From: Malassezia furfur
Lineage: Eukaryota
DNA length: 39,052 nucleotides
NCBI GenBank assembly: GCA_052055015.1
Contig: JBQJIT010000058.1
Reading direction: 5' to 3' (one strand)
Shown here: one piece after another, positions 1,169 through 39,052 of the stretch
Position numbering within the stretch: the stretch's first letter is position 1
Layout of the letters: the number at the start of each line of letters is the position of its first letter
Program-made: the position numbers and the translations under genes
The notes under the pieces: model-generated
Told to the model about the DNA's origin: nothing
Database searches by the model: none
Seen by the model: only the letters and a program-made list of their open reading frames with translations

Positions 1169-2170
1169 CTATACAAGGGGCTGCGCGAGAGTCTGGCATG
1201 GCCGTTGCATCCCGAGCTGCTGCGTCACGGCGATCGGCATACAGTACGTCGGGTCAACAGGTGCAAGGCCCGCGTAGCCGAGCAGCGAGAGGCCCGCGAC
1301 GCCGAAGAGCGTATGGAAGACGTCGGCGACGTTGCCTGGGCGGTCAGCGATACCCCCGTCGACGTCCTGTGCAGACAGGATGAATGCGGCCAACTTGGGC
1401 CCATCGATGTAGTGCAACTTGCCGAGCAGGCTCAACGACGACAGCACCCACCACGAATAGCACACGTCCTCGAGCTTCTGGGGGCGCCCATTCAGCCCGC
1501 CGCACGGGAGCTGCCGCTCGGCGAGCCAGTGCGCAAGGCGCTCCGTGTCGATGCGGTCGAGCGTGCGCAGGATCGAAAGCGCGCCCACACACGTAAACAC
1601 CTGCGCGGCGTGGCTCTCAGCGCCCTCGGTAGAGCCAAACCCGCCGTCGTAGTTGGCGCATCGCAGCACCCACGCGGTGGTGCGCTCTGTGTCGAGACGC
1701 TCGAGCGCGCCAAGATGCGCCAGTGCACTCACACCACAGTAGAGGAACCGCGTGTCCGTCTCGCCCCACTGGTCGCCCTGGAAGGCGCCCTCGGGGAGCT
1801 GCAGCGAGAGCACAACTGCGTTAGTATCGCCGCACGTACATTCGATGATGCGCTCGCGGCGCTCACCAAGCACATCGAGCGCGTTTTTCAAAGCGAGTAC
1901 CTGGATCGCACTCAGCGTGCTCAGAATGTGCGCGTCGTGCTGGGGGTACGCACCGAACCCCCCCTGCTGTTCGTCGTAGCAGCTCAGCACGAACTCGACG
2001 AGCTCGTCGCGGTCGAGCACCTCGCCAGCGTGCATCAGCTCGAGCGCACACAGACCCCAGTAGACGCCGTTCATACGCAAGTGTGCGGTCATGTGGTATG
2101 CGACGCTCGCATCGCGCTTCTGCTCGAGCTTCTTGATGAAGCGCACATGCTCCGCAACGCGCAGCGCCAT
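1169..2170 (-). CDS. BET2: Rab geranylgeranyltransferase (type II) beta subunit
   Basis: Prenyltransferase motifs HLRMNGVYWG, GETDTRF, ESHAAQVF, GRPQKLEDVCYSWW, DVFHTLFG. ATG at 2170. A 24-nt intron at 1816..1839 (GTACGT...CTAACGCAG) gives IIEFVLSLQ when spliced. Confidence 0.93.
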   Translation of the reverse strand: MALRVAEHVRFIKKLEQKRDASVAYHMTAHLRMNGVYWGLCALELMHAGEVLDRDELVEFVLSCYDEQQGGFGAYPQHDAHILSTLSAIQVLALKNALDVLGERRERIIECTCGDTNAVVLSLQLPEGAFQGDQWGETDTRFLYCGVSALAHLGALERLDTERTTAWVLRCANYDGGFGSTEGAESHAAQVFTCVGALSILRTLDRIDTERLAHWLAERQLPCGGLNGRPQKLEDVCYSWWVLSSLSLLGKLHYIDGPKLAAFILSAQDVDGGIADRPGNVADVFHTLFGVAGLSLLGYAGLAPVDPTYCMPIAVTQQLGMQRPCQTLAQPLV

Positions 2171-2205
2171 GGTGGAGGCAGCACGTGGCGCACTCCGCCC
2201 GGGCC

Positions 2206-2956
2206 ATGACGTCGTGGGTGCCACTCGAAGCGAATCCGGAGCTGTTCGGCGCGTGGAGCGCCCAGCTCGGGCTCGACACGCAACAAAGCACGTTCCATGA
2301 CATCTTTGGACTCGACGAGGAGCTCCTTGCGATGGTGCCACAGCCCGTGCATGCCGTGCTGTGCCTGCTGCCGCTCACGCCGAACATCGAGGCGCGGCAC
2401 CGCAGCGAGGACGCCGCATACACGCCGCCGCAGGGCGCCGATAAGGTGCTGTGGTTTGAGCAGACGGTACGTCGCGGCCGCACACTGACCTAGATCGGCA
2501 ATGCGTGCGGCACAATTGGCCTGCTGCATGCGATTGCCAACTCGCCTGCTGCAGAGTCCATGGCGCCCGACTCGCCCCTCGCGCAGCTCCTGCGCGTGGC
2601 GCGTGGCGCGACGCCCGCGGAGCGCACCAAGTTGCTGGAAAGCTCGGATGCACTGAAGAGTGCGCACGCTGCGACTGCCGGTCAGGGGCAGACCGCCGCA
2701 CCGGACGCCGACGACCCGGTCAACCTGCACTTTGTCGCGTTTGTGCGCGGTCCCGACGGGAAGCTTTGGGAGCTGGACGGCCGCCGCCGCGGGCCGATCG
2801 CGCGCGATGTGCCCGTTGACTCCGAGGCCGCGCTGCTGCCGAGCGCCGCCAAGTTTGTGCAGGACTACTACGTACGTGGCGCCACCGCTCACACAGATGC
2901 GCACGGACCCCGACCAGGTGCAGTTCAACCTGATTGCGCTCGGACCGGCTGCTTAG
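2206..2956 (+). CDS. YUH1: Ubiquitin C-terminal hydrolase (peptidase C12, UCH-L3/Yuh1)
   Basis: WVPLEANPE, spliced QTIGNACGTIGLLH (catalytic Cys), LHFVAFV, LWELDGRR. Exons 2206..2466, 2494..2871, 2897..2956 (introns 27 and 25 nt). Confidence 0.93.
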
Positions 2957-2966
2957 CGTACGTAGA

Positions 2967-4454: not shown

Positions 4455-4488
4455 AGCGAAGAAGCCACGTGCCGATCGGGCTACGACC

Positions 4489-5167
4489 ATGTCGCTGTTC
4501 AAGAAGATGGACGCGAAGGCGGACGTCGGCACGCCGACGTCCCTCAAGTCGTCCGTGCAGCGCGGGATCCGTACCAAGCTCCTGGAGCAGTACGCCGACA
4601 CGCTCGGCGCGAACGACGGCGAACTGCTCGAGCAGATCCTGCCGAAAAAGGAGCCCCTGACCGTCGTCAAGTTCAAGTAGGTGGTGCCCACCGACTGACC
4701 CAGGCGCGAACATGTGCAGATCCTCCTGCTCAAAGGCGTCCCGCTCTTCTTCCAGCACTATGACGGGCCGTGGCTGCCGACGCTCCATGTGCTCCACCAA
4801 TGTATGCCGCACACACTCACGCTCCAGACCCGACGCTCCTGCCCTGGATCCAGGTGGACCGCGGCGCGATCAAGTTCTTGCTATCCGGCGCCAACGTCAT
4901 GGCCCCCGGCCTGACGTCCGCGGGCGGGCACCTCCCTGACCCGGCGCAGGGCGAGAAGCCGCTCACCAAGGGCACGCCCGTCGCGATCCGGTCGCAGGGT
5001 AAGACATACGAAGTCGCCATCGGCTCGCTGCTCGCCGACACCGAAGAGATCCGGTCGCAGGGCAAGGGCAACGTCGTGGACAACGTGCACTACATTGGCG
5101 GTACGTGGGCCTGTACTCACGCACAGACGACCTCTGGGCCGTGTGCAGCAAGGGCGGCTTCGTCTAG
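4489..5167 (+). CDS. TMA20: Translation machinery-associated protein 20 (MCTS1 family, PUA domain)
   Basis: LKSSVQRGIR, PTLHVLHQYP, QVDRGAIKFLLSGANVMAPGLTS, HYIGDDLW. Exons 4489..4676, 4704..4801, 4828..5100, 5127..5167 (introns 27, 26, 26 nt). Confidence 0.93.
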
Positions 5168-7528
5168 TTACAGCGCCGAGCTGGGACGCAGCTTCAGGCC
5201 GAGCGTGCGCGCGACAATGGCGAATTCTGGGTTAGTAGCACCGCACGTACTCTCGCTCGCCTCATCGATCCGCTTCTGTGTGTTCTTTCCCGCGCCGTGG
5301 CCCGCCTGGAGCTCGACGCGGAGGAGCAGGGGGTTGGGGTTGTCCTTGCGCTGGTGCTGCAGCTCCGCAGCAAGCTTGAAAGAGTGCGCGGGCACGACAC
5401 GGTCGTCGTGGTCCGCACACGCCAGCACCATCGTGGGGTACGTTTTCGTCGCCGATACGTTGTGCAGCGGCGAGTACGTGTAGTTGTAGTCGAACGCCGC
5501 ACCGTCCTCCTGCGGGTTGCCGTAGTCGGCACACCACGCTTTGCCGATCGTCCACAGCGGGAACTTGAGCATGTCGTGCACGCCAACGTCGGCGATCGCC
5601 GCACCAATGCCGTGCTGCTCCTCGCACTGGTTCGCGACAGCCGCGACTCCGAGACCACCGTTGGAGCCGCCCATGATGGTAATCTTACCCTTGGCCGCAT
5701 AGCGCTCCTCATGCAGGTACTGCGTCGCGGCCATCACATCGTCAAACACGTTCTGCTTGTGGAAGAGCATGCCGGCCTCGTGCCACTTGTCGCCATACTC
5801 ACCGCCGCCGCGCGCGTTGACAAACGCAAGCGTCCCGCCATAGGACGCGACCCACGTCATCATCGACGGCGAGAATGTCGGGTTCAGCGGGATGTTGAAG
5901 CCGCCGTAGAAGTATACCAGCGCGGGCGCCGTGCCGTCACGCGGCATCGACTTGGGGTGCGTCAGGAACATGGGGATCTGCGTGCCGTCCTTGCTCTTGA
6001 CAAACACCTGCGTGCTGGTGTAGTCGTCGGGACGGATGCCCGCGACGTGCGTCGTGGAGTACACCGAAACCTTGGGCGGCACAACCTCTGCCTGCGGCGT
6101 GTCCTCCCACGACAGGCGGTGCACCGTGCCCGGGTTCGCGAACGACACACTCAGCACAAACGCCTCGCGGTCCGTGCGCAGCCCCGCAAGCTGGCCAATC
6201 GTGCCGACGAGCTCGGGCAGGAGGCGCTCGACACGCGTGCCGTCGAGCGTGTACAGCCACAGCTCATCCTTCACGTCGCGCGAGCACAGCACGAGCAGCT
6301 TGTTGTGGTCAACGAGCTTGGCCGCAGTCAAAATCGCCTTCGGGTCCTCGGGGATCACGTCACGGAAGTCGTCGTGGCGGCCGCGCAGCGTCGCGACGTG
6401 GGCGGTCTGCTGCGCATCGCTCGCATTCACATCAAGCATCACGACACGGTAGTTGGGCGCGTCCTTATTCGTGGTAAAGTAGAAGCGGTTGCCGTCGTTG
6501 CCGATGTAGCTCAGCGTATACGCAAACTCGGTCACGATCGGGATCCAGGCGAGCTGATCGAGCGGCTTCCCCTCGAGCTGCGCGAGGTAGAAGCGCTGCT
6601 TGGTGTCGGTGTCCTTAGAGTTCTCCAGGAGCATCCAGCGCCCGTCGTCGGTGACCGTCGGATGCCACATGGAGCTCGGCAGGTCGGCGTCCTTGCCGAC
6701 GACGCATACGTCCTTCGACTGCGGCGTGCCGAGGCGGTGGTAGTACAGCTCGGCATCCTTGTTCGCATCCGTCTCCGTGCCGCGGTCCGCGTGGGCCACG
6801 GGCGGGTAGCGCTGGTAGAAGAAGCCTTGGCCGTCGTGCGTCCACTCGGCGGTGGAGAACTTGACGTTCTCGAGCACGTCCGGCAGGCGTCCTGCGCCGC
6901 CCTCGGTACCATCGTTCGACGTGAGTGGCGCATCCGTCGAGCGCACGTACAGTTTCACCCAGTCGGAACCGCTCACCGACAGGCCGTATGCGACGTACTT
7001 GCCCGTGTGCGAAAAGGCGGTGAGCGACAGGGCGACGGTGCCGTCGGAGGACAGCACGTTCGTGTCAAAGAACAACTCGCCCACGGGCTCCTTTCCGCCG
7101 TTGTACGCGTCGATCTGCTCGCGCGTCGCACGGTAGATCTGGCTCTGCGGCGCGAGGCCGGCGTTGTACGAGTAGTAGTACCGCCCATCGTGCTTGTGCG
7201 ACGGCGCCGAGGCTCGCACGTAGTCCCAGTTCTTTTCGAGGCGCTCTTTGAGCACCTCCTTGTCACCACACTCGTCCAGGAACGCCTTGGTGTACGCGGC
7301 CTGCGCCTTGGTCCATGCGTCCGTCTCGGGGCTCTGCGACGGCGGCACTTCGAGCCAATCGTACGGCTCAGGCACGGTCACTTGGCCGTGTTTCTGGCTC
7401 GCATACGTCTTCGAAGCGTCCGAACGGCGCGCAGGGGGGTACGGCGCAGCACTCGGGGTCCAGTTGGTGCGCACACTCATCGTCCACGCACGATAAGGAA
7501 GCAGCGGACGGCGTAGCCAGCGCGACAT
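5168..7528 (-). CDS. Prolyl oligopeptidase (peptidase S9A)
   Basis: YPPARRSD...PEPYDWLE N-terminus, beta-propeller, catalytic GGSNGG / DDRVVP / AGHGAGK. In-frame ATGs at 7528 and 7480. A 24-nt intron at 5227..5250 gives EASEKFAIV when spliced. Confidence 0.93.
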   Translation of the reverse strand: MSRWLRRPLLPYRAWTMSVRTNWTPSAAPYPPARRSDASKTYASQKHGQVTVPEPYDWLEVPPSQSPETDAWTKAQAAYTKAFLDECGDKEVLKERLEKNWDYVRASAPSHKHDGRYYYSYNAGLAPQSQIYRATREQIDAYNGGKEPVGELFFDTNVLSSDGTVALSLTAFSHTGKYVAYGLSVSGSDWVKLYVRSTDAPLTSNDGTEGGAGRLPDVLENVKFSTAEWTHDGQGFFYQRYPPVAHADRGTETDANKDAELYYHRLGTPQSKDVCVVGKDADLPSSMWHPTVTDDGRWMLLENSKDTDTKQRFYLAQLEGKPLDQLAWIPIVTEFAYTLSYIGNDGNRFYFTTNKDAPNYRVVMLDVNASDAQQTAHVATLRGRHDDFRDVIPEDPKAILTAAKLVDHNKLLVLCSRDVKDELWLYTLDGTRVERLLPELVGTIGQLAGLRTDREAFVLSVSFANPGTVHRLSWEDTPQAEVVPPKVSVYSTTHVAGIRPDDYTSTQVFVKSKDGTQIPMFLTHPKSMPRDGTAPALVYFYGGFNIPLNPTFSPSMMTWVASYGGTLAFVNARGGGEYGDKWHEAGMLFHKQNVFDDVMAATQYLHEERYAAKGKITIMGGSNGGLGVAAVANQCEEQHGIGAAIADVGVHDMLKFPLWTIGKAWCADYGNPQEDGAAFDYNYTYSPLHNVSATKTYPTMVLACADHDDRVVPAHSFKLAAELQHQRKDNPNPLLLRVELQAGHGAGKNTQKRIDEASESTCGATNPEFAIVARTLGLKLRPSSAL

Positions 7529-7564
7529 TCCTTGTGGAGGTTTCGGGCGGCGCTTGGTTCCGGT

Positions 7565-8458
7565 ATGTCGTTTAACGATCTGGAGCGGGGCGTGTCGGAG
7601 GACACGCCGCTCGAGCCGCGGAACCGCGGGCGCACGCTCGATGCGCCACGCAGCCCCGTGAGCCGGGCCGAGAGCCCCGAGTTTATGCGGCTTACGGAGC
7701 AGGTCGGCCTGCATGTCTTCCGTATCAATGCCAACGTGTCGACCCTCTCGAAACTCGATGCGCAGTTGCGCAAGACGCCGTACGCCAAGAACGATGAGCT
7801 CCGGCGCCAGTTGTACGTGCACCAACTCACACAGCAACGACCTCAGCGAACAGACGCGGGGGATCGTAAAGGATGCCACCGACGACATCAAGGCCCTCTC
7901 GCTGTTTCCGGTGCGCACCGCCGGCAGTGCGGGGTCGTCGCCCGCAGGGCTGCTGCAGTCGAAGCTGCAGCGCGACTTCCAGCAGGCGCTCGTGGCGTTC
8001 CAGGCGATCCAAAAGTCGGGCGTGCGCAAGGAAAAAGAGGCGCTCGCCTACGTCAAAGCCCAAAGCGACGAGCCGGAGGCCGAGCAAGTCGGTGCGCTGC
8101 AGGCGCAGGAGCAGGTCCCGCGCGTGTCACATGCCGAGCTCGAGTACCAGGAGGCACTCATCGCCGAGCGCGAGGCCGAGATCCGTGAGATCGAGGCGGG
8201 CGTGCAGGAACTCAACGAGATCTTCCGCGATCTGAGCCACATTGTCCAGGAGCAGGGCGGCATGATCGACAACATCGAGTACAACATCACCAACATCTCG
8301 ACCAACGCACAGGGCGCCGACCGCGAGCTGCTCCAGGCGCACGACTACCAGCGTCGTGCGGGGCGCCGGTCGGCATGCCTGATGATCATTGTCGCGTTTG
8401 TGGTGTTTGTGGTGCTTCTCGCGGTACGTGGCGTACACTGACACAGCTCCTGGCTTGA
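7565..8458 (+). CDS. PEP12: Qa-SNARE syntaxin, Pep12/Vam3 (syntaxin-7/12) family
   Basis: SNARE motif IAEREAEIREIEAGVQELNEIFRDLSHIVQEQGGMIDNIE plus a C-terminal TM anchor. Exons 7565..7812, 7835..8423, 8447..8458 (introns 22 and 23 nt). Confidence 0.85.
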
Positions 8459-8480
8459 CTTTTCTGTACTATCGTAGTGT

Positions 8481-9539
8481 CTAGATGAATCCTGCATAAT
8501 TCACCGGACCTACGGTCTGCGCGCCAACGAGCTCGAGCGCGCCGCTGGCGCCGTCACGCGAGAGCAGCGCGAGCGTCTCAGAGCCCTGGTTCGCGACGAC
8601 CACCCAGCGCTCGTCCTCGCTGAGCGCAAAGTGGCGCGGCACGCGGCCGCCGCACGCGTAAAAGACGGGCGTGCTCAGCGCGCCGTCGGCCGCGCGCGGC
8701 AGGGCCGCCAGCACGTCCTCGTGGGCGTCGCTGCGGCAGCTCACGTACACGAAGCGACCGTCAGACGACACGGCGACCTCGGCGAGCGTGTCTGTATGTT
8801 TCTGCGGGGGGCGCACCGGTACGGCGGTTCCCTGGGCCGTGAGCTTTGCGCCGTCCCACGCAAAGGCCTGCACCTCGAGCGAGAGCTCCATCACGACGTA
8901 GGCGGTCGTCTCGTGGAACACGAGATGGCGCGGGCCGCTCCCGTCTGGCACGGGCACCGAGGTCGCGAGCGCCGCGTCGTGTGCGCGCGCGCCCACGCGC
9001 ACAATGTGGATGCGGTCGGAGCCCAAGTCGCAGATCAGGACGTGTTTGTGGTCCGGTGACGGCATCACCTGGTGTGCGTGCGGCATTTCCTGGCGGTCTG
9101 CGACACGCCCGTGGCCGCTGCGGTGGAAGGGTATGGTGTGCGGCGCGCCGAGCGTGCCGTCGTGCGCGAGGTCGAGCACGGACATGGATCCCGACGCGTA
9201 GTTGGCTGCGTGTGAGCGGGCCACGTACCGACAAACACCTGCGCGCCGTACGGCATGCGCACGATCGCGATGCTCACTGCGCCGTCGCCGCCGACGTGCG
9301 CGGAGGCGTGCAGCTCGAGCTCGTTGGCGGTCTCGCGAAAGACGGACAGGACGGCGTTGGGTGTCTCGCCGACGCACAACACCAGCTTCTCGTCGAGCGT
9401 GATGTGCTCGAGCCACGCCGGTGCGTCACAGGCGATGCGCCCGGTGCGCCGGAGCTCGGGCGGGGCGAATGCATACGATGCGCTGCGTGAGCCGTGCGCC
9501 TTACACTTCACCCGCGTACGACGCGGTGCGGATCGTCAT
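8481..9539 (-). CDS. Lactonase family 7-bladed beta-propeller (YbhE/6-phosphogluconolactonase or carboxy-cis,cis-muconate cyclase-like)
   Basis: Spliced VFVANYASG, RQEMPHAHQV, DLGSDRI, GSGPRHLVF, PRHFAL, VANQGS. Exons 9539..9505, 9482..9229, 9205..8481 (introns 22 and 23 nt). Confidence 0.87.
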
Positions 9540-11241: not shown

Positions 11242-12469
11242 CTACTTCTTCGCCTGGGCAATCTCCTTGTACTCCACGAGCCGCAGCAGGTTCCGCTGCA
11301 GCATCGACACGGTGATCTTGCCGATCGCAGGCAGGTACGCCCCTGCCCGGCTGCGCACGTCGCTCTCAAAGTTCTTCTCGGAGCTGAAGTTGATACAGGT
11401 CGCGCCCTCCTTGATCCACGCGGTCGGCACCTTGTAGCTCGCCGACGGCACACCGCCCACGACCACGTCCGACTCGCGCACGCAGCTCTCCACGTCGGGG
11501 TGCTCGCACCCGCACACGACATGGGCGGACCGCAGCCGCGCCTTGGTGTTTTCCTCGTGTGCCGTGCGCACGCGCTCCGACTTGCGCAGGCCCGAAACGC
11601 CCGCGCCGTCGTCCTTGGCGAGCTTGTTGAACTCGACGATGGAGTCAATGTCGACCGAGAACACACGCGCACCGTCGTTGGCGAGCAGCGCCGCAAGCGG
11701 GCGGCCGACCACCTCGGAGCGGTTGATCACCGTGATCGTGCGTCCGCGCAAACGGTCGCCGTACGGCAGCTGCGAGTCGTACACGCCGGCCGACTCGAGC
11801 GCTTTGACCACCGCCAGGGGCGTGCACGGAAGGATGCTCTTGGCGTAGCCGGGCGGCGCCTTGTCGTCCTTGCCGACGTTCGGGTCGAGGTTGAGCAGCT
11901 CGAGCTCGTTCGTGGTGCCGGGCGCGCTGCCGAGGTGCATCGGGTCAATCCAGCGCACGTTGTGGTACAGGTTCCAGCAGTAGTAAAAGTTGAGGCCCTC
12001 GACGTCCTTGCGCGGGTCCACAATCTGCTGCAGGTAGGTGTCCTGGCGCCCGCCAAAGATGGGGTAGTACACCTGCAAAGTCAGTACACACGCGCATACG
12101 CACCATGACACCGTCCACGCTCTTGTCGCGGTTCGCGGCCAGGATCAGGTCCTCGACGTCCGCCTCGAGCCCAAAGTTTTGCAGGCTCTCCGACGCGCCG
12201 TTCTCCGACGCGACACTCTCCTGCTCGGCATCCTCCCACGTCTTCCAGATCTCAAAGTTGATACCCACCGCGACGCACGCCTTGCGCGTCCATTCGGCGT
12301 ATGCAATGGACGGCGGACTCGGCTTGGCCAGGATGCCCACGAGCTTCGGGATCGCACGGCCCGCCTCAGAGCGCTGCTTGATGTCCGACTCGATCGCCTC
12401 CTGGAACGGCTTTGCGATCGCCGCCGCCTGCAGGAGTTTGCCGGGGTACTCGGGCTTGCTGGTCGCCAT
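11242..12469 (-). CDS. MTD1: NAD-dependent methylenetetrahydrofolate dehydrogenase
   Basis: Spliced VDGVMVYYPIFG, KDVEGL, ILPCTPLAVVK, VINRSEVVGRPLAALLANDGA. Exons 12469..12104 and 12072..11242 (31-nt intron). Confidence 0.93.
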
Positions 12470-12639: not shown

Positions 12640-13981
12640 TTACACAGTCTTCCATTCCGAATCGTTCTCCGTAGCCACGTCGTTGCTCTTCTCCGCACTC
12701 GCGCTGGGCGCCGCGCTCCTCCACGCACCCTCCGTCTTCGCCTTGGGCGCACGTGCCTTCTTCTCCTCATGCTTCTGGCGCTCCTCGCGGCGCAGGCGGT
12801 CCTGCACGCGGATCTTTTCGTCGATCTCGCGCTCACGCTGGCCCACGTCCACCGGCTTCGCTGCACCGAACGGGTTGGAACGCGCCGAGCCCTGCGAGGG
12901 CGACGTCGGCGTGCCCGAGGGTGTCGAGCCACGCGGCTTCAGGTCCAGCTTGCGGCGTTCCGTGGAACCCTGGCTGCCGCCCGACGACAGGCGCCCGGCC
13001 CGCCAGTTCGCAAAGCCCTCCTCGCTGGCGCCCGGCTCGCGACGCTCAAAGCCACCGCCACGGCGCTCGCCGTCCGCCGAGCCGAAGCCGAAGCGCGACG
13101 TGTTGTTACGGCCCGTGACCGGCTTGCCCGTGCGCCAGTCGGATGCCGTGTCGCTGCGGCTCGGCTCCATCGGCTCCATGCTCCGGCGCGGCGGGCGGTC
13201 GGCAGAGGGCGTAAACTTGCCGCCAAACCCGCTCCGCGACCCATCAGCACCAACGCCCATCTCGTCAAAGCCCGAGCCGGACCCAAAGTCGCCGAAACCG
13301 CCGCGGTTCGACGAGGGAAGCGGCGTCGAGCGGCGCCACTGCGACGCGTCGTCGGCCATGGTGCTCTTAAGGCCACGCGACGACGGCTCCGCGACGCTGA
13401 CGCGCACGTTGCGGTTGTCCAGAGGCCTTCCCGTGTACGTCAGCGCCTCCTTCAGCTGGTCCAGCGTCTCAAACTCGACGTAGCCGTACCCCTTCGGCCT
13501 GCCGTCGTGGCTGCTCACCAGCCGCACACTCAGCGGCTTGAGCGGCTCGAAAAAGTACTGCACATCCGACTCCGTACTCTCAAAGGACAGGTTCACCACG
13601 AACGCCGTGAACGGCGGCTCCGTGGGCAGCGGGGGCTCTTCGCGCGCAAAGGGCGCGCCGTGGTCCTCGAAACGCGAGCGGCCCATCGGACGCGAACCGA
13701 GGCCACCCGAGCCAAAGCCAGACATCTGGTCACGGGGGGCAGCTGCAACGTTAGCTACCTGCAAACGTCGCTGCACACGTACGAGCCGAGGGAAGTTCGT
13801 CCATTTCGTCGGCCCACGAGCTGCCGGTCGCTGTTGCGTGTTAGTACGCTGCACAGAGCCTAAGCGTGTACCCACTTTCGTCGGCCAAGAAGTCCACCAG
13901 GGACATCTTGTTCTGTTGCTTCTTAGGTGCTGCACATCGTTAGTCTCCTTTCTCGCAAGCCACAGCCGAACACCTACCCAT
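12640..13981 (-). CDS. TIF3: Translation initiation factor eIF4B
   Basis: Spliced N-terminus MAPKKQQNKMSLVDFLADETTGSSWADEMDELP, RRM (PFTAFVVNL, KGYGYVEF), RKLDLKPR and SNPFGAAKPVD. Exons 13981..13978, 13929..13876, 13830..13783, 13742..12640 (introns 48, 45, 40 nt). Confidence 0.92.
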
Positions 13982-14058: not shown

Positions 14059-14823
14059 ATGAGCGGGGCACAATCCAGCGGCGCGCCGCAGGTGTGCAAC
14101 ACAGCGAGCATCAAGGACACGAAATACTTTTGCGATGATGCGATTGAGCGGGTAGGTAGCACAACGCTCACGAAGCTCTTGACCCAACGGCCCAGCGCTG
14201 AGCGCACGCCGTCTGCCAAAGGCAAGGAGAAATCGACGGTCGAGTTTGCGCCGTTCCAGGCGTCACACACGGTCGACGACGTGCTCATGGCAGTCAGTCT
14301 CACAGGCTCAGTGATCATGCTTGGGACGGTCGGCTACGTGTACCTCAAAAAAGTCGAATGGCCCATTGCGCGCCAGTACTACCTGGTCGCGGTGTCTACG
14401 TTCGCGGTACTGTTTGCACTCCAGAGCGCGATCAAGTACTTTGCAGGGCCCCTCGTCTTCCGTGGCACGCGTAAGATGCTGTCGAACCGCGTACGTGCGT
14501 TGTATGCTGATGCAGGTGGAAGTGGAATATCTCCGGATCCAGTCGCCTGCTCCTGGTGCGCCGAGAGTCACGAACGAGACGGCCGCCGACGGGCGGCCGA
14601 TTCTTGTACCTCCGGAGTACAAGCTCGAGGTGTGGTACACGCGCAAGAGCAACGGTGGCAAGAGTGTCCTAGCTACAAAACATGATTACATCGTTCTCGG
14701 CCACTTCGGTACGTGCTCCTTGGCGCTGACGCAGGCGAATGGTTCACCGAAACGGGCGAGTTTGTAGAGTCCGTGTTTGAGCAGCGGCTGCTGACGAGTC
14801 TGCAGCGCGTTCTGGGTGAATAG
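14059..14823 (+). CDS. SPC2: Signal peptidase complex subunit 2 (SPC25/Spc2 family)
   Basis: KYFCDDAI motif, two TM segments, C-terminal GEWFTETGEFV. Exons 14059..14151, 14176..14490, 14516..14708, 14735..14823 (introns 24, 25, 26 nt). The first intron is in frame and less certain. Confidence 0.8.
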
Positions 14824-14915
14824 GTGTCATATCTGCTCGTCTAGGGATGGCCAGAGTGTGCTTCTCCACATCGTTCTCCCACGACCGTTTGTCGCGACGA
14901 CGCGACGACGTCGAC

Positions 14916-15341
14916 ATGCGCACCAATGATCTGACCGCGGATCGCAACTGGCACCTGGGGAGCGAACATGTGGGCCTCATCCATGTGTGCAAGTGCACCT
15001 GCTTCACAACCAACACAACCCTCATTCCACTCTATGCGCCTACGCCCCAAGGTGATCTGTGCAGCGCGTGCACCAAGCAGTTCTGTCTTGAGCGTGCCGA
15101 GGGATGCCATGGGGCCCAGATTGCCGAGGTCAACGACGATACTGCGACTGGCTACGAGGGCCAGGTGTGGGCCAAATGCTTCAGTACGTGGTAGACTAAC
15201 GCAGTTCGCGACCCAACAAAAGACCAGTCGATCGTGCTATTCTATCTGATTGCTGTACTTGGCCTGCTCTTTTGGATATTTGTGCGGAGCCGGGCAGGGC
15301 AGGCACTTTGGGCGCGCCTACGCGCTACGCTTCGTTTGTAA
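14916..15341 (+). CDS. Small Cys-rich, C-terminally membrane-anchored uncharacterised fungal protein
   Basis: CKCTCF...CSACTKQFC...C...CF. Removing a 21-nt intron (15184..15204) continues into IRDPTKDQSIVLFYLIAVLGLLFWIFV (TM). Start is uncertain (14916 or 14847). Confidence 0.75.
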
Positions 15342-15619: not shown

Positions 15620-16337
15620 ATGGAAGCCAAGCTGCAGTCGCTCAAGGTGCCGGAACTCAAGGATTTGCTCACGAAGGCGTCGTTGCCTGTTACTGGCAAC
15701 AAGCCCGACCTGATTAAGCGGCTGCTTGAGAACCCGTCGGCGACGTCGTCGTTGGGGGACGCCGAGGCGCCTGCCTCAGAAACCGAGTCGGCGCCTTCAG
15801 CGCCGTCGGAGCCCGCTGCGCCTGCCGCTGAGACGGCGACGCCCGCTGCCACGACCGAGGCTGCCGAGACTCATGTTCCGCAAGCGCCGGCCGCTGCGGA
15901 ATCGCCGGACCAAGAGGCACGCAAGCGCAAGCACCTGGCGGAGCTGGAGAAGCGCAAGGCGCGTGCGATCCGCTTTGGGCAGCCTACGGAGGAGCTCGAG
16001 AAGGAGATTGCGCGTGTGACCAAGTTTGGTCTGCCGGAAGGCGAGGCGGATGCTACCCAAAAGATCGACCACGGTTTGCGCACCGGCAAGCGTGCCCAGC
16101 CCTCAGCTCAGGCGGGTCCGACGAAGCAGGCCAAGACCGAGGCCAAGGCCCCTGCCGCACCGGCAGTGTCGGTAGGTGACGTTGCTAACGTGCAGGAGGA
16201 AGAGCTGGAGCGGAGAAAGCGCCGCGCTGAGCGCTTTGGGCTGGTCGATCCCGCCGAGGAGGAAAAGAAGCGCCAGCGTGCGGAGCGATTCAACGTGCGT
16301 AGCCGCGAGTCTGACGCAGGCGCCCAAGGCGGCGTAA
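15620..16337 (+). CDS. THO1: SAP-domain RNA-binding protein (Tho1/SARNP/MOS11 family)
   Basis: N-terminal SAP domain LKVPELKDLL...LPVTGNKPDLIKRL and repeated RKARAIRFG / RKRRAERFG motifs. Exons 15620..16171, 16196..16294, 16320..16337 (introns 24 and 25 nt). Confidence 0.85.
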
Positions 16338-17868: not shown

Positions 17869-18855
17869 TTACTGCTGGCGCATCTTGCTGCGCTTGCCCG
17901 TCTGCGCCTGGAAACCGGTCTTGATGGCGCTGACCGAGCGCTGCGAGCCGCATGCCTCGCAAGTCATGAAGTAAATCCGGTTCTCTTTTGTGAGGAGCGT
18001 GTTCGGCGAGCGGCACGTCTTGCAGGTGACGTATTCCACAATGTATCGCCGCAGCACGTTTTCGATCTGCTTCGGCTGGAAGCGACCACGGATCACGAGG
18101 CGCTGGCTACCGTCCATGGAGCCGACGGTACCCAGCTCGGTGAAGAGGTATTGGATGACGTGGTCCGGCTGGCGGTGCATACGCTTGCAGATCTCGAGGA
18201 CGTTGGCAAACACCGTCTTTTTAGAGCCATCGCGCTGCACAACGGGCGGCACCATGGTGTACTTCTTCTTCTCACCCGAGAGCGCGGGGTTCTGCAGACG
18301 CAGCGTGCGGAAGATGCGGCCGAGGAGCTCCTGGTAGGTGTAGTCGCGGTCGGTGCCCTGCCAGGCCTCGACGTCTTCGGTCTTGCCACCGGCCGCATCC
18401 TCGTCCTTCTCCTGCGCGAAGGGGTTCTCGCCGTCGTCCTCGGCATTGTCCTCGTCATGCTGCTCGCCGAGCTCCTTCTCGAACTCCTCGAGGTCGAACG
18501 CGGCCTTCTTCTTCTTCTTCTTCTTCTTCTTCATCTCGCCAAACTGGAGGTCAGTCGCGTGGGCCGCACGTACGTCGAGCGCGCCGTCCTCGTCGGGGGG
18601 CGCATCGTCTTCCTTGGTCTCCGGCGCAGGCGCGTCCTCCGTCGCCTTGGGCGCGTCGCTGGCCGGCGCGTCCTCCTTGGGCGCTTCTGTGTCCTTCTTG
18701 GTGTCGGCGTCGAAGTCAAAGTCCATCGGGATCTTCTTCTTCTTACCGCTCTTCTTCTTCAGGCCACCGAAAAGGTCGGCCGCATCCTGAGGAGCCTCTT
18801 GCTGCTGGGCAGCCGGCGGGTCCGCCACCGTGTCCTGGCCCACTGCCGTCGACAT
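17869..18855 (-). CDS. SUI3: Translation initiation factor eIF2 beta subunit
   Basis: Lysine boxes, [15 protein letters not shown]2-C2 finger (CKTC...CEACG), [10 protein letters not shown] 30-nt in-frame intron lies at 18544..18573. Confidence 0.95.
18505..18531 (-). repeat. (AAG)9 coding microsatellite encoding an eIF2beta poly-Lys box
   Basis: Nine perfect ctt units on the + strand. Confidence 0.9.
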
Positions 18856-24198: not shown

Positions 24199-24754
24199 AT
24201 GGCGCAGGTCAATCCGTAAGTGGGGCGCATGGCTCACCCAGCGTGCTGGCACTGGTCAGCCGCGCCGACTCGCTGGCAAACGGTAGGTGCACGCGCTCAT
24301 GCAGGTTTCAATAATGTGTACCAACAGACGCTGCCCGCCGTCGATGCGCTGGCGCCGCTGCACCCCGACGACCCCCAGTGCGAGCCGTTTTTGCAGGTGC
24401 TGCGCGACGGCCTGACGGCGATGGAGGGATACACGGAGCAGATGGTCAACATGCTGTATGAGGTCGATGTGTACCTCGCGCCATCCACGACGCAGTCTGC
24501 CGCAGGTTTCAACCCGCAGGAAGCACTCTCGCACGTCTCGGATCTCTTCCACGTACGTCGGCGCGCGCCGCGCAGGCTGACCCCAGAGCTACCAGGCCGA
24601 GCTGCTCGCCAAGCGCGAGGCGCTGGCCGACTACACGTGCGAGGATATCACGCCGCAGCAGTTTGCCGCGCAGTGGCGCACCCTCGACGAGGTCCAGGCC
24701 GGGCGCAAGCAGGAGATGGACGACTTGGCCGACTTGTTGGCCCAGTTTGGCTAG
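24199..24754 (+). CDS. Uncharacterised 157-aa helical protein (4 exons)
   Basis: Exons 24199..24215, 24242..24282, 24305..24552, 24587..24754 are joined by three consensus introns (26, 22, 34 nt) into one open frame MAQVNPVLALVSRADSLANGFNNVY...LFHSYQAELLAKRE...LLAQFG. Confidence 0.75.
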
Positions 24755-29494: not shown

Positions 29495-30704
29495 ATGAAG
29501 CTGTTGGTGAAGTCGTTGGCCGGTGGTAATTTCCATCTGGACGTAGAGCCGAGCGAGACGGTAGGTGGCTGGCATCACTCACACAGATTGGCGCTGTCAA
29601 GGAGTCGATCCAAAAGCAGCAGGGCCACGCCGTCGAGCTGCAGAAGCTCATTTTCTCGGGCAAGATTCTCGAGAATGACAAGACGATCGAGTCGTACGGG
29701 ATCAAGGAGAAGGATTTCCTGGTGGTGATGGTGTCCAAGGTATGCCACTCTGCTGACCCAGCCGAAGGCTGCCAAGCCCGCGCCCAAGGCCGAGGAGCCG
29801 AAGAAGGAGGAAGCCGCGCCGGCTGCTCCGAGCGCCCCGGCCGATGCTCCGTCTGACGCGCCCGCGGCGCCCGCTGCCGAGGCGCCAGCGGCTGCGGCTC
29901 CCAGTGCGACGCCGGCGAGCAGCGCACCGGAGTCCACGCCCTCGCAGCCTGCTGGCCTGCAGGCTGCCTCGTTCCGTACGTCGTGTGCCAACTCACCCAG
30001 TGTCGGGCCCCGAACTCGAGTCGGCCATTAACAACATCGTCGAGATGGGCTTCCCCCGTGAGGATGTGCAGCGTGCGATGCGCATGAGCTACAACAATCC
30101 CGACCGCGCCGTCGACTACCTGATGAACGGCCTGCCTGCCGAGCCAACGCCGCAGGCTTCGCCCGCCGCGCCAAGTGCCGCTGCGCCGGCGCCAAGTGCC
30201 GGCGGCGGTGCCACGGATGCACCGCGGTCAGGCAACCTGTTTGAGCAGGCTGCTGCGCAGGCGGCACGTGGTGCAGCGGCGCCTGGTGCCGACGTGCTGC
30301 CTGGCGAGGACGACGGGCAGGGCCGCCAGCTGATCGACCTCGGCAACCCCCAGGTGCTGGGTCAACTGCGTGCGCTGGTGGAGCAAAACCCGGCGGCGCT
30401 CCAGCCGCTGATCCAGGCGCTCGTGCAGAGCAACCCGCAGCTCGCTGAGGCGCTCAGCGCCGACCCCGAGGGTGTGCTGCGCATGCTGGCGGGCGGCGAA
30501 GGACTCGAGCCACTGGAGGGCGAGGAGTCGTTCGAGGTGCCGACGCTGCAGCAGCTCAGCGAGGAGGACCGCGGACAGGTCGAGCAGATCATGGCGATGG
30601 GCATCCCCGAGAGCAAGGCGATCGAGAGCTACTTCATGTGTGGACGCAACCTCGAGATGGCGGTTCAGTACTACTTCGAGAACCCGCAGGACTTCGAGGA
30701 CTAG
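29495..30704 (+). CDS. RAD23: UV excision repair / proteasome shuttle protein Rad23
   Basis: UBL (QKLIFSGKIL), UBA1 (IVEMGF), XPC-binding region, UBA2. Exons 29495..29560, 29587..29739, 29762..29975, 30001..30704 (introns 26, 22, 25 nt). Confidence 0.95.
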
Positions 30705-30705
30705 T

Positions 30706-31491
30706 TTATAGCTTAGGATCTGAATTGTCGTCCGCTGCCGTCGGGAGGGGCACCGAGCGCCATGCCCCGGGCTCCTCCTGCAGGAAACTCGCAAAAAAGT
30801 CGCGCAGGAAGTTGCGCCACGGCGCCGGCGTCGGCAAATAGTGTCCACCATCGTGCTCGGCCACACGCACCTGGTCACACACCTGCACGAGCGTCTCGGT
30901 GAAGGCGGGGGTAACGATCGAGTCTTCACGGCCCTGGATGACGAGCATCGGCGTCGCGATGCGCGCCTCCATGAGCCGGTCAAAGAGGGGCGCTCGCGGG
31001 CGGAAGCCGGATACGCTCACTGCGAACCGGAACGGTTGCGCCTGGAAAGTGCCCGGCGAATCAGGAACGAGCTCCGGGTGCTCTAGCGCGGCCGCGAGGA
31101 CGCCCGCAAGGCACCCGCCCTGGCTGAAGCCCAGCACACCGTCAAACGGCCCCTGCTCCTGGAAGGCTCGCTGCAGGTACCGCGCCGTGCCGTCCCACCC
31201 CACGTACGCATCATCGATTTGGCGCCACCACGCACGCGCCTGCTCCTCTTCGGGGTCGCTCGGGCTCGGGGACTTCGGGTCCGGATTCGCCTCGCTGGGA
31301 AACGCCTTGACCTGGATCGGCGCATTGAGAAACACAAAGTCGACGACGTCTGGGTGAGCAGCGGTGCACATACTTCGGCATGCTTTTTGGAGCGCACTTG
31401 TGCGCCGCTTGAACACGTACGAATTCTGCGCGAAGCCGTGCAGAACTAGCACACGCAGCTTCGCACCCGACGCCGCCGCGTTCGCCGGCAT
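30706..31491 (-). CDS. FSH1: FSH1/OVCA2-family serine hydrolase
   Basis: VLVLHGFAQN, RAWW, GPFDGVLGFSQG (nucleophile Ser), GREDSIV, HDGGHYLP. A 24-nt in-frame intron lies at 31350..31373. Confidence 0.9.
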   Translation of the reverse strand: MPANAAASGAKLRVLVLHGFAQNSYVFKRRTSALQKACRSMCTAAHPDVVDFVFLNAPIQVKAFPSEANPDPKSPSPSDPEEEQARAWWRQIDDAYVGWDGTARYLQRAFQEQGPFDGVLGFSQGGCLAGVLAAALEHPELVPDSPGTFQAQPFRFAVSVSGFRPRAPLFDRLMEARIATPMLVIQGREDSIVTPAFTETLVQVCDQVRVAEHDGGHYLPTPAPWRNFLRDFFASFLQEEPGAWRSVPLPTAADDNSDPKL

Positions 31492-34523: not shown

Positions 34524-36012
34524 CTAGCTATCGAAGGCGGCGAACGCGTCCGACTGCCACTGGAACCAGCGGTAGGCGCCGGTGAGCAGCGCCGCAACTA
34601 GGAACACACAGTCGAACAGCGCGCCAAAAACGCGCTGGAACTCGGGCAGCGTCGCGAGCAGTGCGCTTGCACGCGCGCGAGGGCCTCCGACACTCGCGTG
34701 TAGCTGGATGAGGGCCGCCAGCGCATAGATACATAGCACCTCTGCCGTGAACAGCACCAGCAGCTGCGCACTCACCCCGGCGGACACGGAGCGGATGAGC
34801 GTCGATAGCGTACTCAGGAGCACACGCATACGCAGCACAATCAGAATGCCCACCGACAGGAAGCCGATCCGCGGCGCCCATAGCGCCACGTCCACGTCGA
34901 GGCCCAGCATGCGCATCGTATGCGCCAGGCACGTCGACACGAAGTCGGGCGACGTGCCGCGGTAGCCAAACAACACCAAATTGAGCACACACTGCGCGAT
35001 GCGGAACGTGCAGTACAAGGAAAACACGTGCGACGACATGAGCAGCACCCGGCCCAGCACCGTGCGCTGGTAGCGCACGCGCCGCTCATGCTCAGTGATC
35101 ACCTCGAGATCCGTGCGCATCGTGTTTGCCATCGCCTCGAGCCCAATGATCTCGGTCTGCAGCTCGGCCAGCTCGCGGTCCTTGGCACTGCGCGCCCAGA
35201 ACGCCCACGCTGACCGCTTTGGGCCGCGCGCAATCTCCTCGCTCAGCTCAGCTGCAGCCGTGCGTGCCGTATGCAGGTCCATACACGCGCGCTCAAACGA
35301 CGCCTGCGCCGTCTGCACATCGCTCTCGCGCCAGCGCTTTTGGCGGCGGATCGCGAGCGACTCGTACGAGTCGCACATGGCGCCTCCCGCGGCACTGCCA
35401 GACAGCACGGCAATGAGCGTGATGCCAAGCACTCCGGCTCGTGCAAGTACCACCTCGAAAAAGCCCGTCGCCGTGTTCACGACGGAATGCGGCAGCGGCA
35501 CACGGACAAATGCCCAGCACCATGCGATGAAAAGCACCGACGTCGCAACCGCACGCGTGGTGCTCCAGCTGCGCCGCTTGCCGCCCGGGAAGCAGACCAA
35601 GAAACAGGCCGCGAGTGCTGGGTCAGTCGAGGCACCACGTACGTAGACCCAGGACGATCAGGAGCAGTACGGTCGGAAGCGACATGTGCCAATTTGCACG
35701 CACCCATGGCACGTCGCCATGCGCATGCTCGAGAAGTACCAACACAAACAACATCGCGCTCTCCTCAAAGGCGAGGCAGAACAGTGCGGACGACACGCTC
35801 AGTTGGCGCCGCACAGCTTGGACATAGCCGTGCGCACGCGACTCGGAGCGCGCGCGTGCGTGCGCGACGCGCGGGAGCGACAGGGCGCTGCCATCTGCAC
35901 TGGGCTCAAGCGAGACATAGTTCACTTCGCCGTGCAGCCAGGGCAGCGCCAGGGCCGCACACGCTGCGAGCGCCGCACGCGCCAACAGCACGCCGAGGCC
36001 CCCCACGCTCAT
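34524..36012 (-). CDS. Golgi pH regulator / GPR89 (ABA-GPCR-like) membrane protein
   Basis: Multiple TM segments, RAGVLGITLIAVLSG, LQTEIIGLEAM, FSLYCTFRI, FDCVFL. Exons 36012..35643 and 35617..34524 (25-nt intron). Confidence 0.85.
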
Positions 36013-36017
36013 GGTGG

Positions 36018-36026
36018 GTCACGTGA
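36018..36026. promoter_or_regulatory. GTCACGTGA (Cbf1-type E-box) in the 33-bp GPR89/DUO1 divergent spacer
   Basis: Full RTCACGTG consensus between two head-to-head ATGs. Confidence 0.55.
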
Positions 36027-36045
36027 GGTGGTGCGGCGCGTGGTG

Positions 36046-36725
36046 ATGGACCACGACGCGGCGCTCCGCACCCCGACGCGTGGGCGCGGCGACGCGGACA
36101 CGACGCTCGGTGACGCGAGCGCAAATACAAGCTCGTTTGCCAAGGCGGACGAGTCACTATTTGGGCATGTACTGCGCGCCGATGCTGGGTTGCGCGCCGA
36201 TGCCCCCGTCGAAGATACCGAGAGCGCCGAGCAGGTGCAACAACAGCTTGAGCAGCTACAGCACCTGAACCGCATATTTGCATCCTACGAGTCGGCGCTC
36301 GCAGGCGGTGTGGGTCAGATTGAGGTACGTGCGGTGCACCGCTGATACCAGACTTTTGCGCGCAAGATCCACGAGACCGACCGGCTGCTCGACACCTATA
36401 TCGATCTACTGCAGCACGCACAAGCGCGGCGTACGCTCCTCGCCGATCCCAGCTGGCACGGCGCGTCCAAGGTACGTCGTGTGTGCTCACACAGGATGCC
36501 GCAGATCACGCCGCCGCGCAGCAGCGCGAAGCACAGGCCGCGCTGCGCGCTAGCCAGCCGCGTTCGCGCCCTACTGGCGCGAATTCGTCCCATAGCACCC
36601 GCGGGCGATCCGTACCCACGCGAGGCGCGCACCCGCAGCGCGGGATGGGCGAGTCACGGACTGCGCCCACGCGGGGCGCGTCACGCGCTGCAGCGGCGCC
36701 CACAACGCGGGGTCCCTTTCGGTAG
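36046..36725 (+). CDS. DUO1: DASH/Dam1 complex subunit Duo1
   Basis: Spliced ETDRLLDTYIDLLQHAQARRTLLADPSWHGASKD matches the Duo1 motif, followed by a basic low-complexity tail. Exons 36046..36324, 36352..36471, 36495..36725 (introns 27 and 23 nt). Confidence 0.82.
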
Positions 36726-36810
36726 CGGCGCGGCGTTAGGCACGTGATACTGCGGGGAAACTGGACGTACAAATCGTCAAGGCCCGCTGCTCGCTCGCAT
36801 CGGACAAGAT

Positions 36811-39052
36811 ATGGAAGCTGGACGTACGTGGGAGAGTGCTGACGCAGTGCGTACGCCGCTGACGAGCTTGCATCTGCTCGATGCGCTGCGAAAGGGCGAC
36901 CGCGCAGCGATCGAGTCGATCCTGTCCGGGCAGGACTGGAGCGCCCCTCGGCCGCACCTCGAGTCGCCGCTGCACCTCGCCGTGCTGTGCGCCGAGCCGG
37001 CAACGATCGACTATGTCTTGAAGCAATCCGGCATCGACCCCAACATGCGTACGAGCGACACGGGCAACACGCCACTACACCTCGCCGTGTCGAGCAACCG
37101 CCCGGACGCCGCGGCGCTGCTGCTGTCGCTCCCGACCATCAATGACACCCTACCTAATGCGGAGGGCAAGACGCCCATGGAGCTTGTGACGACGGCCGAT
37201 ATGATGCATCTCTTGCAATGTGCGTGCCACCTGCTGACCTGTAGCCTCGCGCATGGAGCTGCGCGGTAAGATTGCCGACACCATTGAGGCGTACGAGAAG
37301 GAAACCTCGGGGGGTGCCGCAGAAGGGCCCGCACACAAGGAGCTGCTCGCGCTCATTGAGCTGCCACGCATCACAGCCGACGACCTGGCAACCGCGAGTC
37401 GCAAGTCGGGCAACGACGTGCTGCACGCTGCAGTGCGCGCCAAGGATGCGCCGCTGATCACCGCCAGCATCCGTCGCGGCGCCGATCCATTTGTGAAGGA
37501 CATGAACGGGAACACGGCGGAGAGCATGACCAACGACCCGTCTGTGCACGCTCTTCTACGCCAGCTGATGAATGCTGAGGCGGACCAGTCGATTCGCACG
37601 AACCAGTCGCCGACCTACCGCGGCTTCCTCGGCAAGTGGACCAACATGGTGGGCGGCTACAAGATGCGCTGGTTCGTCCTCAAGGACGGCATCTTGTCCT
37701 ACTATCAGTCCCCCGATGACGAGGGCCGCCATGCGCGCGGCTCCATCTACCTGCGCCACGTCAAGATCCTCGCCGACTCGCGCGACAGGATCCGGTTCCA
37801 GATCGTGAGCCAGATGGGCAGCGGCATAAACAAGATGTACTTGCGCGGCAGCGATGCGACCGAGTCGGTCCGCTGGCTCCAGATGCTCGAGAAGGCGAAG
37901 CGCTTTGAGCAGGCGCGCGCCGCGGGGAACACGCAGACAGTGGCCCCCGGCGCCGCTGCTGTGCCGGCGCAGCCAATGCCGACCCAGGTGCCAGGTGATT
38001 CGCAGCGTGTCTCAGTGAGCTCCGCAGCCGGCCCGCTGCCGCGCCTCGCGCCTGTCGCCGGTCAACCGGGTGCCCAAGAGTCGCTGAGCATGCTGCGTGG
38101 GCATAGCAGTATCGGCTCGGCGTCGATTGCCACGGACGATGAGGAGGACATCCCCGACGACCACAGCACCACGAGTGTGGAGCCGAGCGAGGACCTTCCG
38201 CACGCGAAAGAATTCAGCGTGGTTGCGAACCTGATCGAGACGCACTTTGACGTCGCGCTGCAGCTCATCAGCAAGCTCTCGCAGATGCGCCGCGCAGGTG
38301 TGCGCGGCGCGCCGGGCGTTGCGCCCGGCACAGTGGCGCCGCCCGTGACCGAAGTCGAGGGCCTCGCCAAGCCCGTGTCCCAACTGGCGCTCGGTCAGAC
38401 GCCCGTCGGGCAGGACGAGTGGGACTCGTCGCTGGAGGCGATGCGTGCGTCGGTGACCGACCGCCTGCGTCTGTGGCACGAGTACGTCGCGATGGTGCAC
38501 AGCCGCGAAAAGTATCTCAAGGACCAGGTCGAGCGCGAGGTGGCGACGCGCCAGCTCTGGGAAGAGCAGATGATGCAGCTCGGCAAGCAGCACAGCGAGC
38601 TGGAGGGCAATCTGCGCGAGGCCATGTCGGAGATCAACACGCAGCGCAAGGCGCTCCGCAAGGTCCATGGCGAGGAGGCGTACGAGGCAGTGAAGAACGA
38701 GAGCAAGAGCCTGTCGGCCGGCTTGACGGACGCCGTCGGCGGCGCTGCAGCGGCGGTCGGTTCCATGGCCTCATCGCTCTTCTCGAAGCCGTCCCGCTCG
38801 TCGACGTTTGACGACGTGGACGACGAGTTCTTCGACGCGGTCGACTCGGGCAACCTGCCGAACCTGTATGTCGAGAAACCGCTCGAGCAGCGCCGCGCCT
38901 CGTCCAACCGATCGCCGGCGCCGCCCGCCGCGGAGAACGCGGCGCCCGATGCACAGCCCCCCAAGGAGCCCGCAGCGGCGCCGCAGCAGCAGGAGCCTAG
39001 CCCGGGCACGGGCGCAGGTGCAGCGGCCGGCATGGGTGCCGCGGCCGGCGCA
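36811..39052 (+). CDS. Oxysterol-binding protein of Osh1/Osh2 type (ankyrin, PH, FFAT); 3' end outside window
   Basis: Ankyrin repeats (SPLHLAV, GNTPLHLAV), PH domain (GFLGKWTNMVGGYKMRWFVL), FFAT motif EFFDA at 38825..38839 in the same frame. Introns 36824..36847 (24 nt) and 37220..37244 (25 nt). Confidence 0.92.

Follow-up and report, generated by a model that had tools for sequence, protein, structure and literature searches.

The very short introns of Malassezia have been described before. M. sympodialis has 5350 introns with a mean length of 30 bp, 99% of them supported by RNA sequencing (Zhu et al. 2017, PMC5389616, Table 2); in M. restricta the mean and median intron lengths are 37.2 and 30.0 (PMC9241646, Table 1), and its annotation set min_intron_len = 15 (PMC6473144); and a review describes Malassezia genes with 'very short introns' (PMC7426719). 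Here we analyze a 39,052-nucleotide (nt) stretch of DNA (contig JBQJIT010000058.1; this whole stretch is referred to as the window), in which a total of 36 GT-AG introns in 20 genes span positions 1816-37244. With intron lengths centred near or below 30 nt, the window fits the published trait, which an earlier note made from the letters of this DNA had also mentioned; very short introns are real, ordinary for the genus and already known, a genus-wide property rather than a peculiarity of the window. Their novelty is not supported, as tiny introns are found in curated Malassezia annotations and a deposited M. furfur protein uses three of those described here. As a discovery they carry little weight, and the remaining interest is mechanistic.

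The introns of M. sympodialis and M. restricta belong to the same very short GT-AG class as those of the window and have a similar density, about 1.2 per gene; the window, which is of the GC-rich furfur clade (66% guanine plus cytosine, GC), differs in its median of 25 nt and mode of 22-26 nt, and splice-signal architecture is not described in the passages of those papers that were used. According to Irimia and Roy (2008; PMC2483917), the introns of Yarrowia lipolytica, Trichomonas vaginalis and Giardia lamblia share with the window the lack of a polypyrimidine tract, a strong CTRAY-type branch motif and a near-fixed short distance from branch to AG, which amounts to 2 nt in Yarrowia, to 4 nt in both Trichomonas and Giardia and to 3 nt in 23 of the 36 window introns; however, taken overall, the introns of these anchored-branch systems do not count as tiny (Yarrowia has a median of 204 nt), whereas those of the window are mostly 21-27 nt long. 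In the same source Ustilago maydis, a relative at the level of the subphylum, resembles the window in its ACTGAC-type branch motif and intron-poor genome, but its median intron of 95 nt is about four times longer. A literature search, for which most subscription journals were outside reach, returned no paper on Malassezia branch points, lariats, splice signals or splicing factors.

Tiny introns of the same 15-30-nt class occur in Paramecium, the Bigelowiella nucleomorph and microsporidia. Compared with ciliates, the nucleomorph and microsporidia, which are unrelated lineages, the window introns are GC-rich and carry a strong explicit branch motif. Paramecium is depleted of stop-free introns whose length is a multiple of three (3n); these make up 7 of the 36 window introns, with no obvious depletion in this small sample. 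The tiny introns of Stentor (PMC9505925) are also of the 15-30-nt class, and all of these pose the same steric puzzle for early spliceosome assembly.

We interpret the 36 segments, with a probability of roughly 0.93, as U2-type GT-AG introns of the ordinary spliceosomal kind, belonging to M. furfur or a strain nearly identical to it and cut down to little more than their signals. By protein similarity the window comes from this source, because the nearest named proteins of its genes are all from Malassezia and its SPC2 exon is 100% identical to M. furfur GLX27_001945; the RAD23 exon has 94% identity to M. brasiliensis, and TMA20 has 92% identity to M. obtusa and M. psittaci. An initial scan with the regular expression GTRNGT...CTVAY...AG gave 27 + 11 matches, and intron models were obtained by joining coding pieces of open reading frames (ORFs) on each strand, with the addition of four introns that have variant donors (GTATGC twice, GTAAGG and GTACGA). 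The resulting set, rebuilt independently, agrees with the earlier note's set in number, lengths and span. It comprises 25 introns on the plus strand and 11 on the minus strand, all in the sense orientation of Pfam-supported genes, and after splicing no internal stop interrupts any of the 20 intron-containing models, each of which extends from an ATG to a stop codon or up to the window end. Lengths range from 21 to 77 nt (median 25, mode 22-26), with 29/36 at 21-27 nt and 32/36 at 34 nt or less. Retention would shift the frame in the case of 23 introns and introduce an in-frame stop with another 6, while 7 would be in frame and stop-free.

A search for GT...AG termini with a U1/U6-compatible donor hexamer found GT...AG in 36/36; the donors are GTACGT (19), GTAGGT (6), GTGCGT (4), GTATGC (2) and, once each, GTGGGT, GTAAGG, GTAAGT, GTATGT and GTACGA, so that GTRNGT is present in 32/36, with the variants given above as exceptions. 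Every intron contains a CT[ACG]A[CT] branch motif (CTGAC 13, CTCAC 12, CTAAC 8, CTGAT 2, CTCAT 1), the A of which lies 5 nt from the intron end in 23/36 (3 nt between A and AG) and 5-8 nt from it in 33/36; the acceptor is CAG in 32/36. Between donor hexamer and branch pentamer, the 32 introns of up to 34 nt have a spacer of 6-13 nt in 31 cases and 18 nt in one, which, being 40% G and 45% pyrimidine, neither constitutes a polypyrimidine tract nor leaves space for one; donor, branch motif and YAG together account for about 56% of a typical intron. The earlier description of mostly GTACGT donors, a branch motif shortly before the AG and no polypyrimidine tract is thereby borne out, and its figure of about 16-20 nt for the lariat was close to the 16-23 nt that separate the 5' splice site from the branch A in 31/36. 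On both strands the strict pattern matches 42 times, compared to a mean of 4.3 (standard deviation 2.25, maximum 13) in 200 dinucleotide-preserving shuffles and 4 matches in the reversed window sequence; 30 of the 42 correspond to model introns and 10 to alternative donors nested within these, which leaves 2 elsewhere. This enrichment of about tenfold speaks for real introns.

Such an anatomy (a 6-nt GTACGT donor or close variant, a G-rich spacer of 6-13 nt, a CTSAC/CTAAC branch and a YAG usually 3 bases after the branch A) suggests that the whole intron is recognised as a unit, that is, by intron definition. The branch motif and the adjoining AG would form one fused 3' signal, with the 3' site set by its distance from the branch point, and because the two would act as one signal no polypyrimidine-tract step would be needed. 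What the analysis shows is that the introns exist, together with their precise limits and signals. GT-AG termini, branch motif and restored homology agree with the spliceosomal type proposed in the earlier note; removal by the spliceosome, together with the order in which its small nuclear ribonucleoproteins (snRNPs) bind, is what these signals would imply, and the lariat loop would measure 16-23 nt.

Intron boundaries are supported independently in 26/36 cases, by intronless orthologous DNA (10), same-site introns (4), homologue alignments (6), SPC2 (3), PDB structures (2) and Pfam (1), and partially in another four (5227, 7813, 9206, 16172). A metagenome scan with a Malassezia RAD23 protein alignment identified contigs syntenic with window positions 18.4-39 kb, which represent at least three other Malassezia lineages (L001/L003/L007; L002; L005/L006) and have a GC content of 52-56% versus 66% for the window; the spliced models were compared with these contigs by tblastn, the comparative DNA covering introns from 18544 onward. 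In at least one species a single gap-free high-scoring segment pair (HSP) crosses 10 junctions (18544, 19179, 20240, 29561, 29740, 29976, 31350, 35618, 36472, 37220), so that the orthologue lacks the intron and its uninterrupted coding sequence equals the spliced junction. Introns of different length occupy the same site in other species at 24216, 24283, 24553 and 36325. Introns 24216 and 36824 are too near the N-terminus for HSP cover, and the former was settled by inspection of the DNA; a loose motif scan of the other species' loci produced many chance matches.

Protein comparisons lead to the same boundaries. Against 17 homologues, which range from Malassezia to Schizosaccharomyces, all three RAD23 junctions align without a gap, and so do all three of TMA20 against 15 homologues. 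The spliced N-terminus of the RNA recognition motif (RRM) protein, MAPKKQQNKMSLVDFLADETTGSSWADEMDELPSAP, agrees with homologue N-termini, and a 100%-identical database protein shares the splicing of this gene at 2/3 sites. The three-intron model of SPC2 has 229/229 identity to deposited M. furfur GLX27_001945; as the deposited protein equals the spliced model, three window introns are used in the M. furfur annotation. Relative to PDB 6o60_B, the unspliced RabGGTase beta ORF has an extra 8 residues exactly at 1816-1839, and the exons of the dehydrogenase gene abut at residues 96/97 of yeast MTD1 (1EDZ), which selects a 31-nt intron. Pfam coordinates abut across exons for ubiquitin C-terminal hydrolase (UCH; 85/86), Pre-PUA (51/53) and ATP synthase gamma (20/21), and within 1-2 positions for FSH1 and syntaxin. 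Moreover, the family motifs QTIGNACGT, HYIGDDLW, VANYASG and DPSWHGASKD, reported earlier to reappear upon intron removal, each cross a junction in exactly one spliced model (UCH, Tma20/MCT-1, lactonase and Duo1, respectively). The introns, with strand and evidence, are as follows.

1816..1839, minus strand: 24-nt intron, RabGGTase beta, in frame without stop; 8-residue insertion versus PDB 6o60_B in the unspliced ORF, spliced form gap-free.
2467..2493, plus strand: 27-nt intron, UCH; Pfam Peptidase_C12 abuts at 85/86, QTIGNACGT restored.
2872..2896, plus strand: 25-nt intron, UCH gene, before a 60-nt last exon; motif and frame only.
4677..4703, plus strand: 27-nt intron, TMA20/MCT-1; Pre-PUA profile 51/53 with the split codon between, gap-free versus 15 homologues.
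4802..4827, plus strand: 26-nt intron, donor GTATGC, TMA20; gap-free versus 15 homologues.
5101..5126, plus strand: 26-nt intron, TMA20; HYIGDDLW restored, gap-free versus 15 homologues.
5227..5250, minus strand: 24-nt intron, prolyl oligopeptidase, in frame without stop; partial, PDB alignments end at the donor, 5n4f with 74 query versus 67 target residues.
7813..7834, plus strand: 22-nt intron, syntaxin; partial, Syntaxin_2 profile resumes within 1-2 positions across exons.
8424..8446, plus strand: 23-nt intron, syntaxin, before a 12-nt last exon; motif and frame only.
9206..9228, minus strand: 23-nt intron, lactonase; partial, Pfam Lactonase match begins at the downstream exon's first residue, VANYASG restored.
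9483..9504, minus strand: 22-nt intron, donor GTAAGG, lactonase, after a 35-nt first exon; motif and linkage of ORFs only.
12073..12103, minus strand: 31-nt intron, NAD-dependent methylene-tetrahydrofolate (THF) dehydrogenase; exons abut at residues 96/97 of PDB 1EDZ.
13743..13782, minus strand: 40-nt intron, RRM (eIF4B-like) gene; identical splicing in the 100%-identical database protein P0153, homologue N-termini continuous.
13831..13875, minus strand: 45-nt intron, RRM (eIF4B-like) gene; identical splicing in P0153, homologue N-termini continuous.
13930..13977, minus strand: 48-nt intron, RRM (eIF4B-like) gene, after a 4-nt first exon; once spliced, its N-terminus MAPKKQQNKMSL agrees with the homologues' MAPKK...KMSL.
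14152..14175, plus strand: 24-nt intron, acceptor AAG, signal peptidase subunit 2 (SPC2); spliced model 229/229 identical to GLX27_001945.
14491..14515, plus strand: 25-nt intron, SPC2; same 229/229 identity.
14709..14734, plus strand: 26-nt intron, SPC2; same 229/229 identity.
15184..15204, plus strand: 21-nt intron, unknown gene 14847-15341; motif and frame only, retention gives an in-frame stop.
16172..16195, plus strand: 24-nt intron, Tho1/SAP, in frame without stop; partial, second Tho1_MOS11_C repeat begins at the next exon's first residue.
16295..16319, plus strand: 25-nt intron, Tho1, before an 18-nt last exon; motif and frame only.
18544..18573, minus strand: 30-nt intron, eIF2 beta, in frame without stop; intronless L001 orthologue gap-free at the junction.
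19179..19255, plus strand: 77-nt intron, ATP synthase gamma; Pfam abuts at 20/21, L001 intronless and gap-free, 82-nt intron at the same site in L002.
20240..20262, plus strand: 23-nt intron, Ile-tRNA synthetase, after a 40-nt first exon; L001 and L002 intronless, gap-free.
24216..24241, plus strand: 26-nt intron, unknown gene 24199-24754, after a 17-nt first exon; same-site introns of 31, 46 and 27 nt in L001, L002 and L005.
24283..24304, plus strand: 22-nt intron, gene 24199-24754; same-site inserts of 24 nt (L001) and 27 nt with stop (L005), L002 GTTAGT.
24553..24586, plus strand: 34-nt intron, gene 24199-24754; same-site intron in L001, L002 and L005.
29561..29586, plus strand: 26-nt intron, RAD23; L001 and L002 intronless, gap-free, intron in L005; gap-free versus 17 homologues.
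29740..29761, plus strand: 22-nt intron, donor GTATGC, RAD23; intronless in L001, L002 and L005, gap-free versus 17 homologues.
29976..30000, plus strand: 25-nt intron, RAD23; intronless in L001, L002, L005 and L007, gap-free versus 17 homologues.
31350..31373, minus strand: 24-nt intron, FSH1 serine hydrolase, in frame without stop; L001 and L007 intronless, gap-free, Pfam abuts within 1 position.
35618..35642, minus strand: 25-nt intron, GPHR/ABA-GPCR family; intronless and gap-free at the junction in 4/4 loci.
36325..36351, plus strand: 27-nt intron, DASH Duo1; same-site intron in L001, L002 and L005.
36472..36494, plus strand: 23-nt intron, Duo1; L001, L002 and L007 intronless, gap-free, DPSWHGASKD restored.
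36824..36847, plus strand: 24-nt intron, ankyrin-PH, after a 13-nt first exon, in frame without stop; motif and frame only.
37220..37244, plus strand: 25-nt intron, ankyrin-PH; intronless and gap-free in 4/4 loci.

For the dehydrogenase gene, a 19-nt alternative (12073-12091) was rejected, as it adds 4 residues relative to 1EDZ; a PDB search with the 19-residue last UCH exon (intron 2872) gave no match. The introns of the RRM/eIF4B-like gene (13743-13977, minus strand), measuring 40, 45 and 48 nt, are the three longest of the tiny class and cluster at the 5' end of the gene, whose first exon consists of 4 nt (ATGG); all three have a CTAAC branch motif and place the branch 8-10 nt before the end of the intron. 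In the case of ATP synthase gamma, a motif-perfect candidate of 43 nt (19179-19221) fails to restore the frame and was discarded for that reason; homology requires the junction 19178^19256 and hence a 77-nt intron, which leaves the count of 29/36 unaffected. Inside this intron, CTGACACAG (19213-19221) resembles the 3' end of a tiny intron exactly, and the 34 nt after 19221 begin with GTGCGC and end with TAG, without a CTNAY motif. Use of a distal AG, recursive splicing and unproductive alternative splicing are possible explanations of the acceptor.

Some observations weigh against the interpretation of all 36 segments as introns of this kind. For six (2872, 8424, 9483, 15184, 16295, 36824) the evidence consists of motif and frame, and four of these flank micro-exons of 12-35 nt; the seven in-frame, stop-free introns leave an ORF also upon retention; and the 77-nt intron departs from the pattern, its sole CTGAC being followed 5 nt later by a CAG (19219-19221), use of which would produce a frame-shifted 43-nt splice, while the productive acceptor lies 34 nt beyond. 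It is thus conceivable that a subset of the 36, especially in-frame stop-free 24-nt segments and neighbours of micro-exons, is coding or untranslated sequence that happens to match the motif, in keeping with the seven 3n introns lacking an in-frame stop, the six lacking independent support, the two strict-pattern matches outside model introns and the approximately four matches per window in shuffles. We consider this improbable: four of the seven in-frame introns (1816, 14152, 18544, 31350) have independent support, being absent from homologues or orthologues at that exact spot, and every candidate lies on the sense strand at a position that preserves an ATG-to-stop ORF. The more radical proposal that the motif matches arise by chance in GC-rich DNA, with frame restoration an artefact of long spurious ORFs, can draw on the many long ORFs that a GC content of 66% creates on both strands, but it is already refuted by the enrichment over dinucleotide shuffles, by Pfam domains that are split exactly at the candidates and abut once these are removed, and by intronless orthologues that equal the spliced junctions.

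The earlier note took their size to mean that the spliceosome is adapted; in this scenario early factors of the Malassezia spliceosome would be altered or lost, or U1 and U2 would bind sequentially, on the argument that 16-23 nt would be too short for both snRNPs. The 6-13 nt from donor hexamer to branch motif and the 3 nt from branch A to AG are in line with this, as are the tiny introns of Stentor, for which steric-clash avoidance has been conjectured and changed branching-factor regions are reported (PMC9505925). On the other hand, the window contains no snRNA (small nuclear RNA) gene and nothing that bears on the machinery, the signals themselves are canonical, and introns of 40-77 nt with the same signals in the same window point to one machinery for both classes. 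The earlier claim that there is hardly room for U1 and U2 at the same time expresses a known puzzle fairly, yet it cannot be derived from the sequence, which by itself does not entail an altered spliceosome; such an adaptation, although plausible, appears to us rather unlikely.

Ten window introns are missing from at least one syntenic orthologue. For fourteen, one or more of the three other lineages cover the orthologous site (in some cases just one does), and seven of these (18544, 20240, 29740, 29976, 35618, 36472, 37220) are found in no covered locus. L005, in turn, has breaks without a window counterpart, close to residue 180 of FSH1 and close to residue 551 of CASP. The FSH1 intron site 31350..31373 holds stop-containing inserts of 42 nt (L002) and 24 nt (L005), and orthologous introns of L002 are longer (35-82 nt). 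Judging from these loci, intron presence varies between Malassezia species both ways, tiny introns having been gained or lost. It is tempting to speculate, although we hold this for doubtful, that the minimal introns of the M. furfur clade have shrunk below the norm of the genus, with an early assembly that differs from that of yeast and human and a fast turnover; this could involve a U1-U2 hand-over instead of co-occupancy, or 3' site definition without Mud2/U2AF.

Several deposited gene models of the genus depart from the spliced ones at tiny introns. That of M. psittaci RAD23 (P0005 and P0002 are RAD23 models) has an 8-residue insertion, VCTLELIK, at junction 1; that of M. brasiliensis RAD23 misses the segment before junction 3; and that of M. 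obtusa TMA20 (P0121) is garbled at junction 1 and truncated at a further one, where its end runs on into the last intron.

The window itself has a GC content of 61-70% and carries eukaryotic housekeeping genes in dense succession. Among its ORFs, 89 with coding-like GC3 (GC at third codon positions) were scanned with Pfam, which identified RabGGTase beta, UCH, TMA20/MCT-1, prolyl oligopeptidase, syntaxin, lactonase, TAF6, methylene-THF dehydrogenase, the RRM protein, Tho1, BCD1, eIF2 beta, ATP synthase gamma, Ile-tRNA synthetase, CPSase small chain, CASP, aspartyl protease, RAD23, FSH1, EFR3, a GPHR-family protein, Duo1 and an ankyrin-PH protein; neither an Rfam scan nor a tRNA scan gave a match in the window. 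The packing is extreme, with spacing between genes that can be zero or negative: the stop codons of TMA20 and prolyl oligopeptidase adjoin without a spacer (5167/5168), the coding sequences of CASP and aspartyl protease have a 7-nt tail-to-tail overlap (28093-28099), RAD23 and FSH1 are 1 nt apart (30704/30706) and, provided that the ATGs are correctly chosen, there is an overlap of two divergent start codons at 4489/4490. At the syntenic place, tblastn with the aspartyl protease gene (28093-29400, minus strand) gave no match in L001 or L002 and only one of 32% in L005, which suggests gene-content variation between Malassezia species at this spot.

In summary, several public gene models of other Malassezia species misread tiny introns, which calls for care with minimum-intron settings and with in-frame 24-nt introns during annotation of these genomes. 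As a transformable fungus with 25-nt introns and what would be a fused branch-AG signal, the organism would be a good system in which to study the space limits of the spliceosome.

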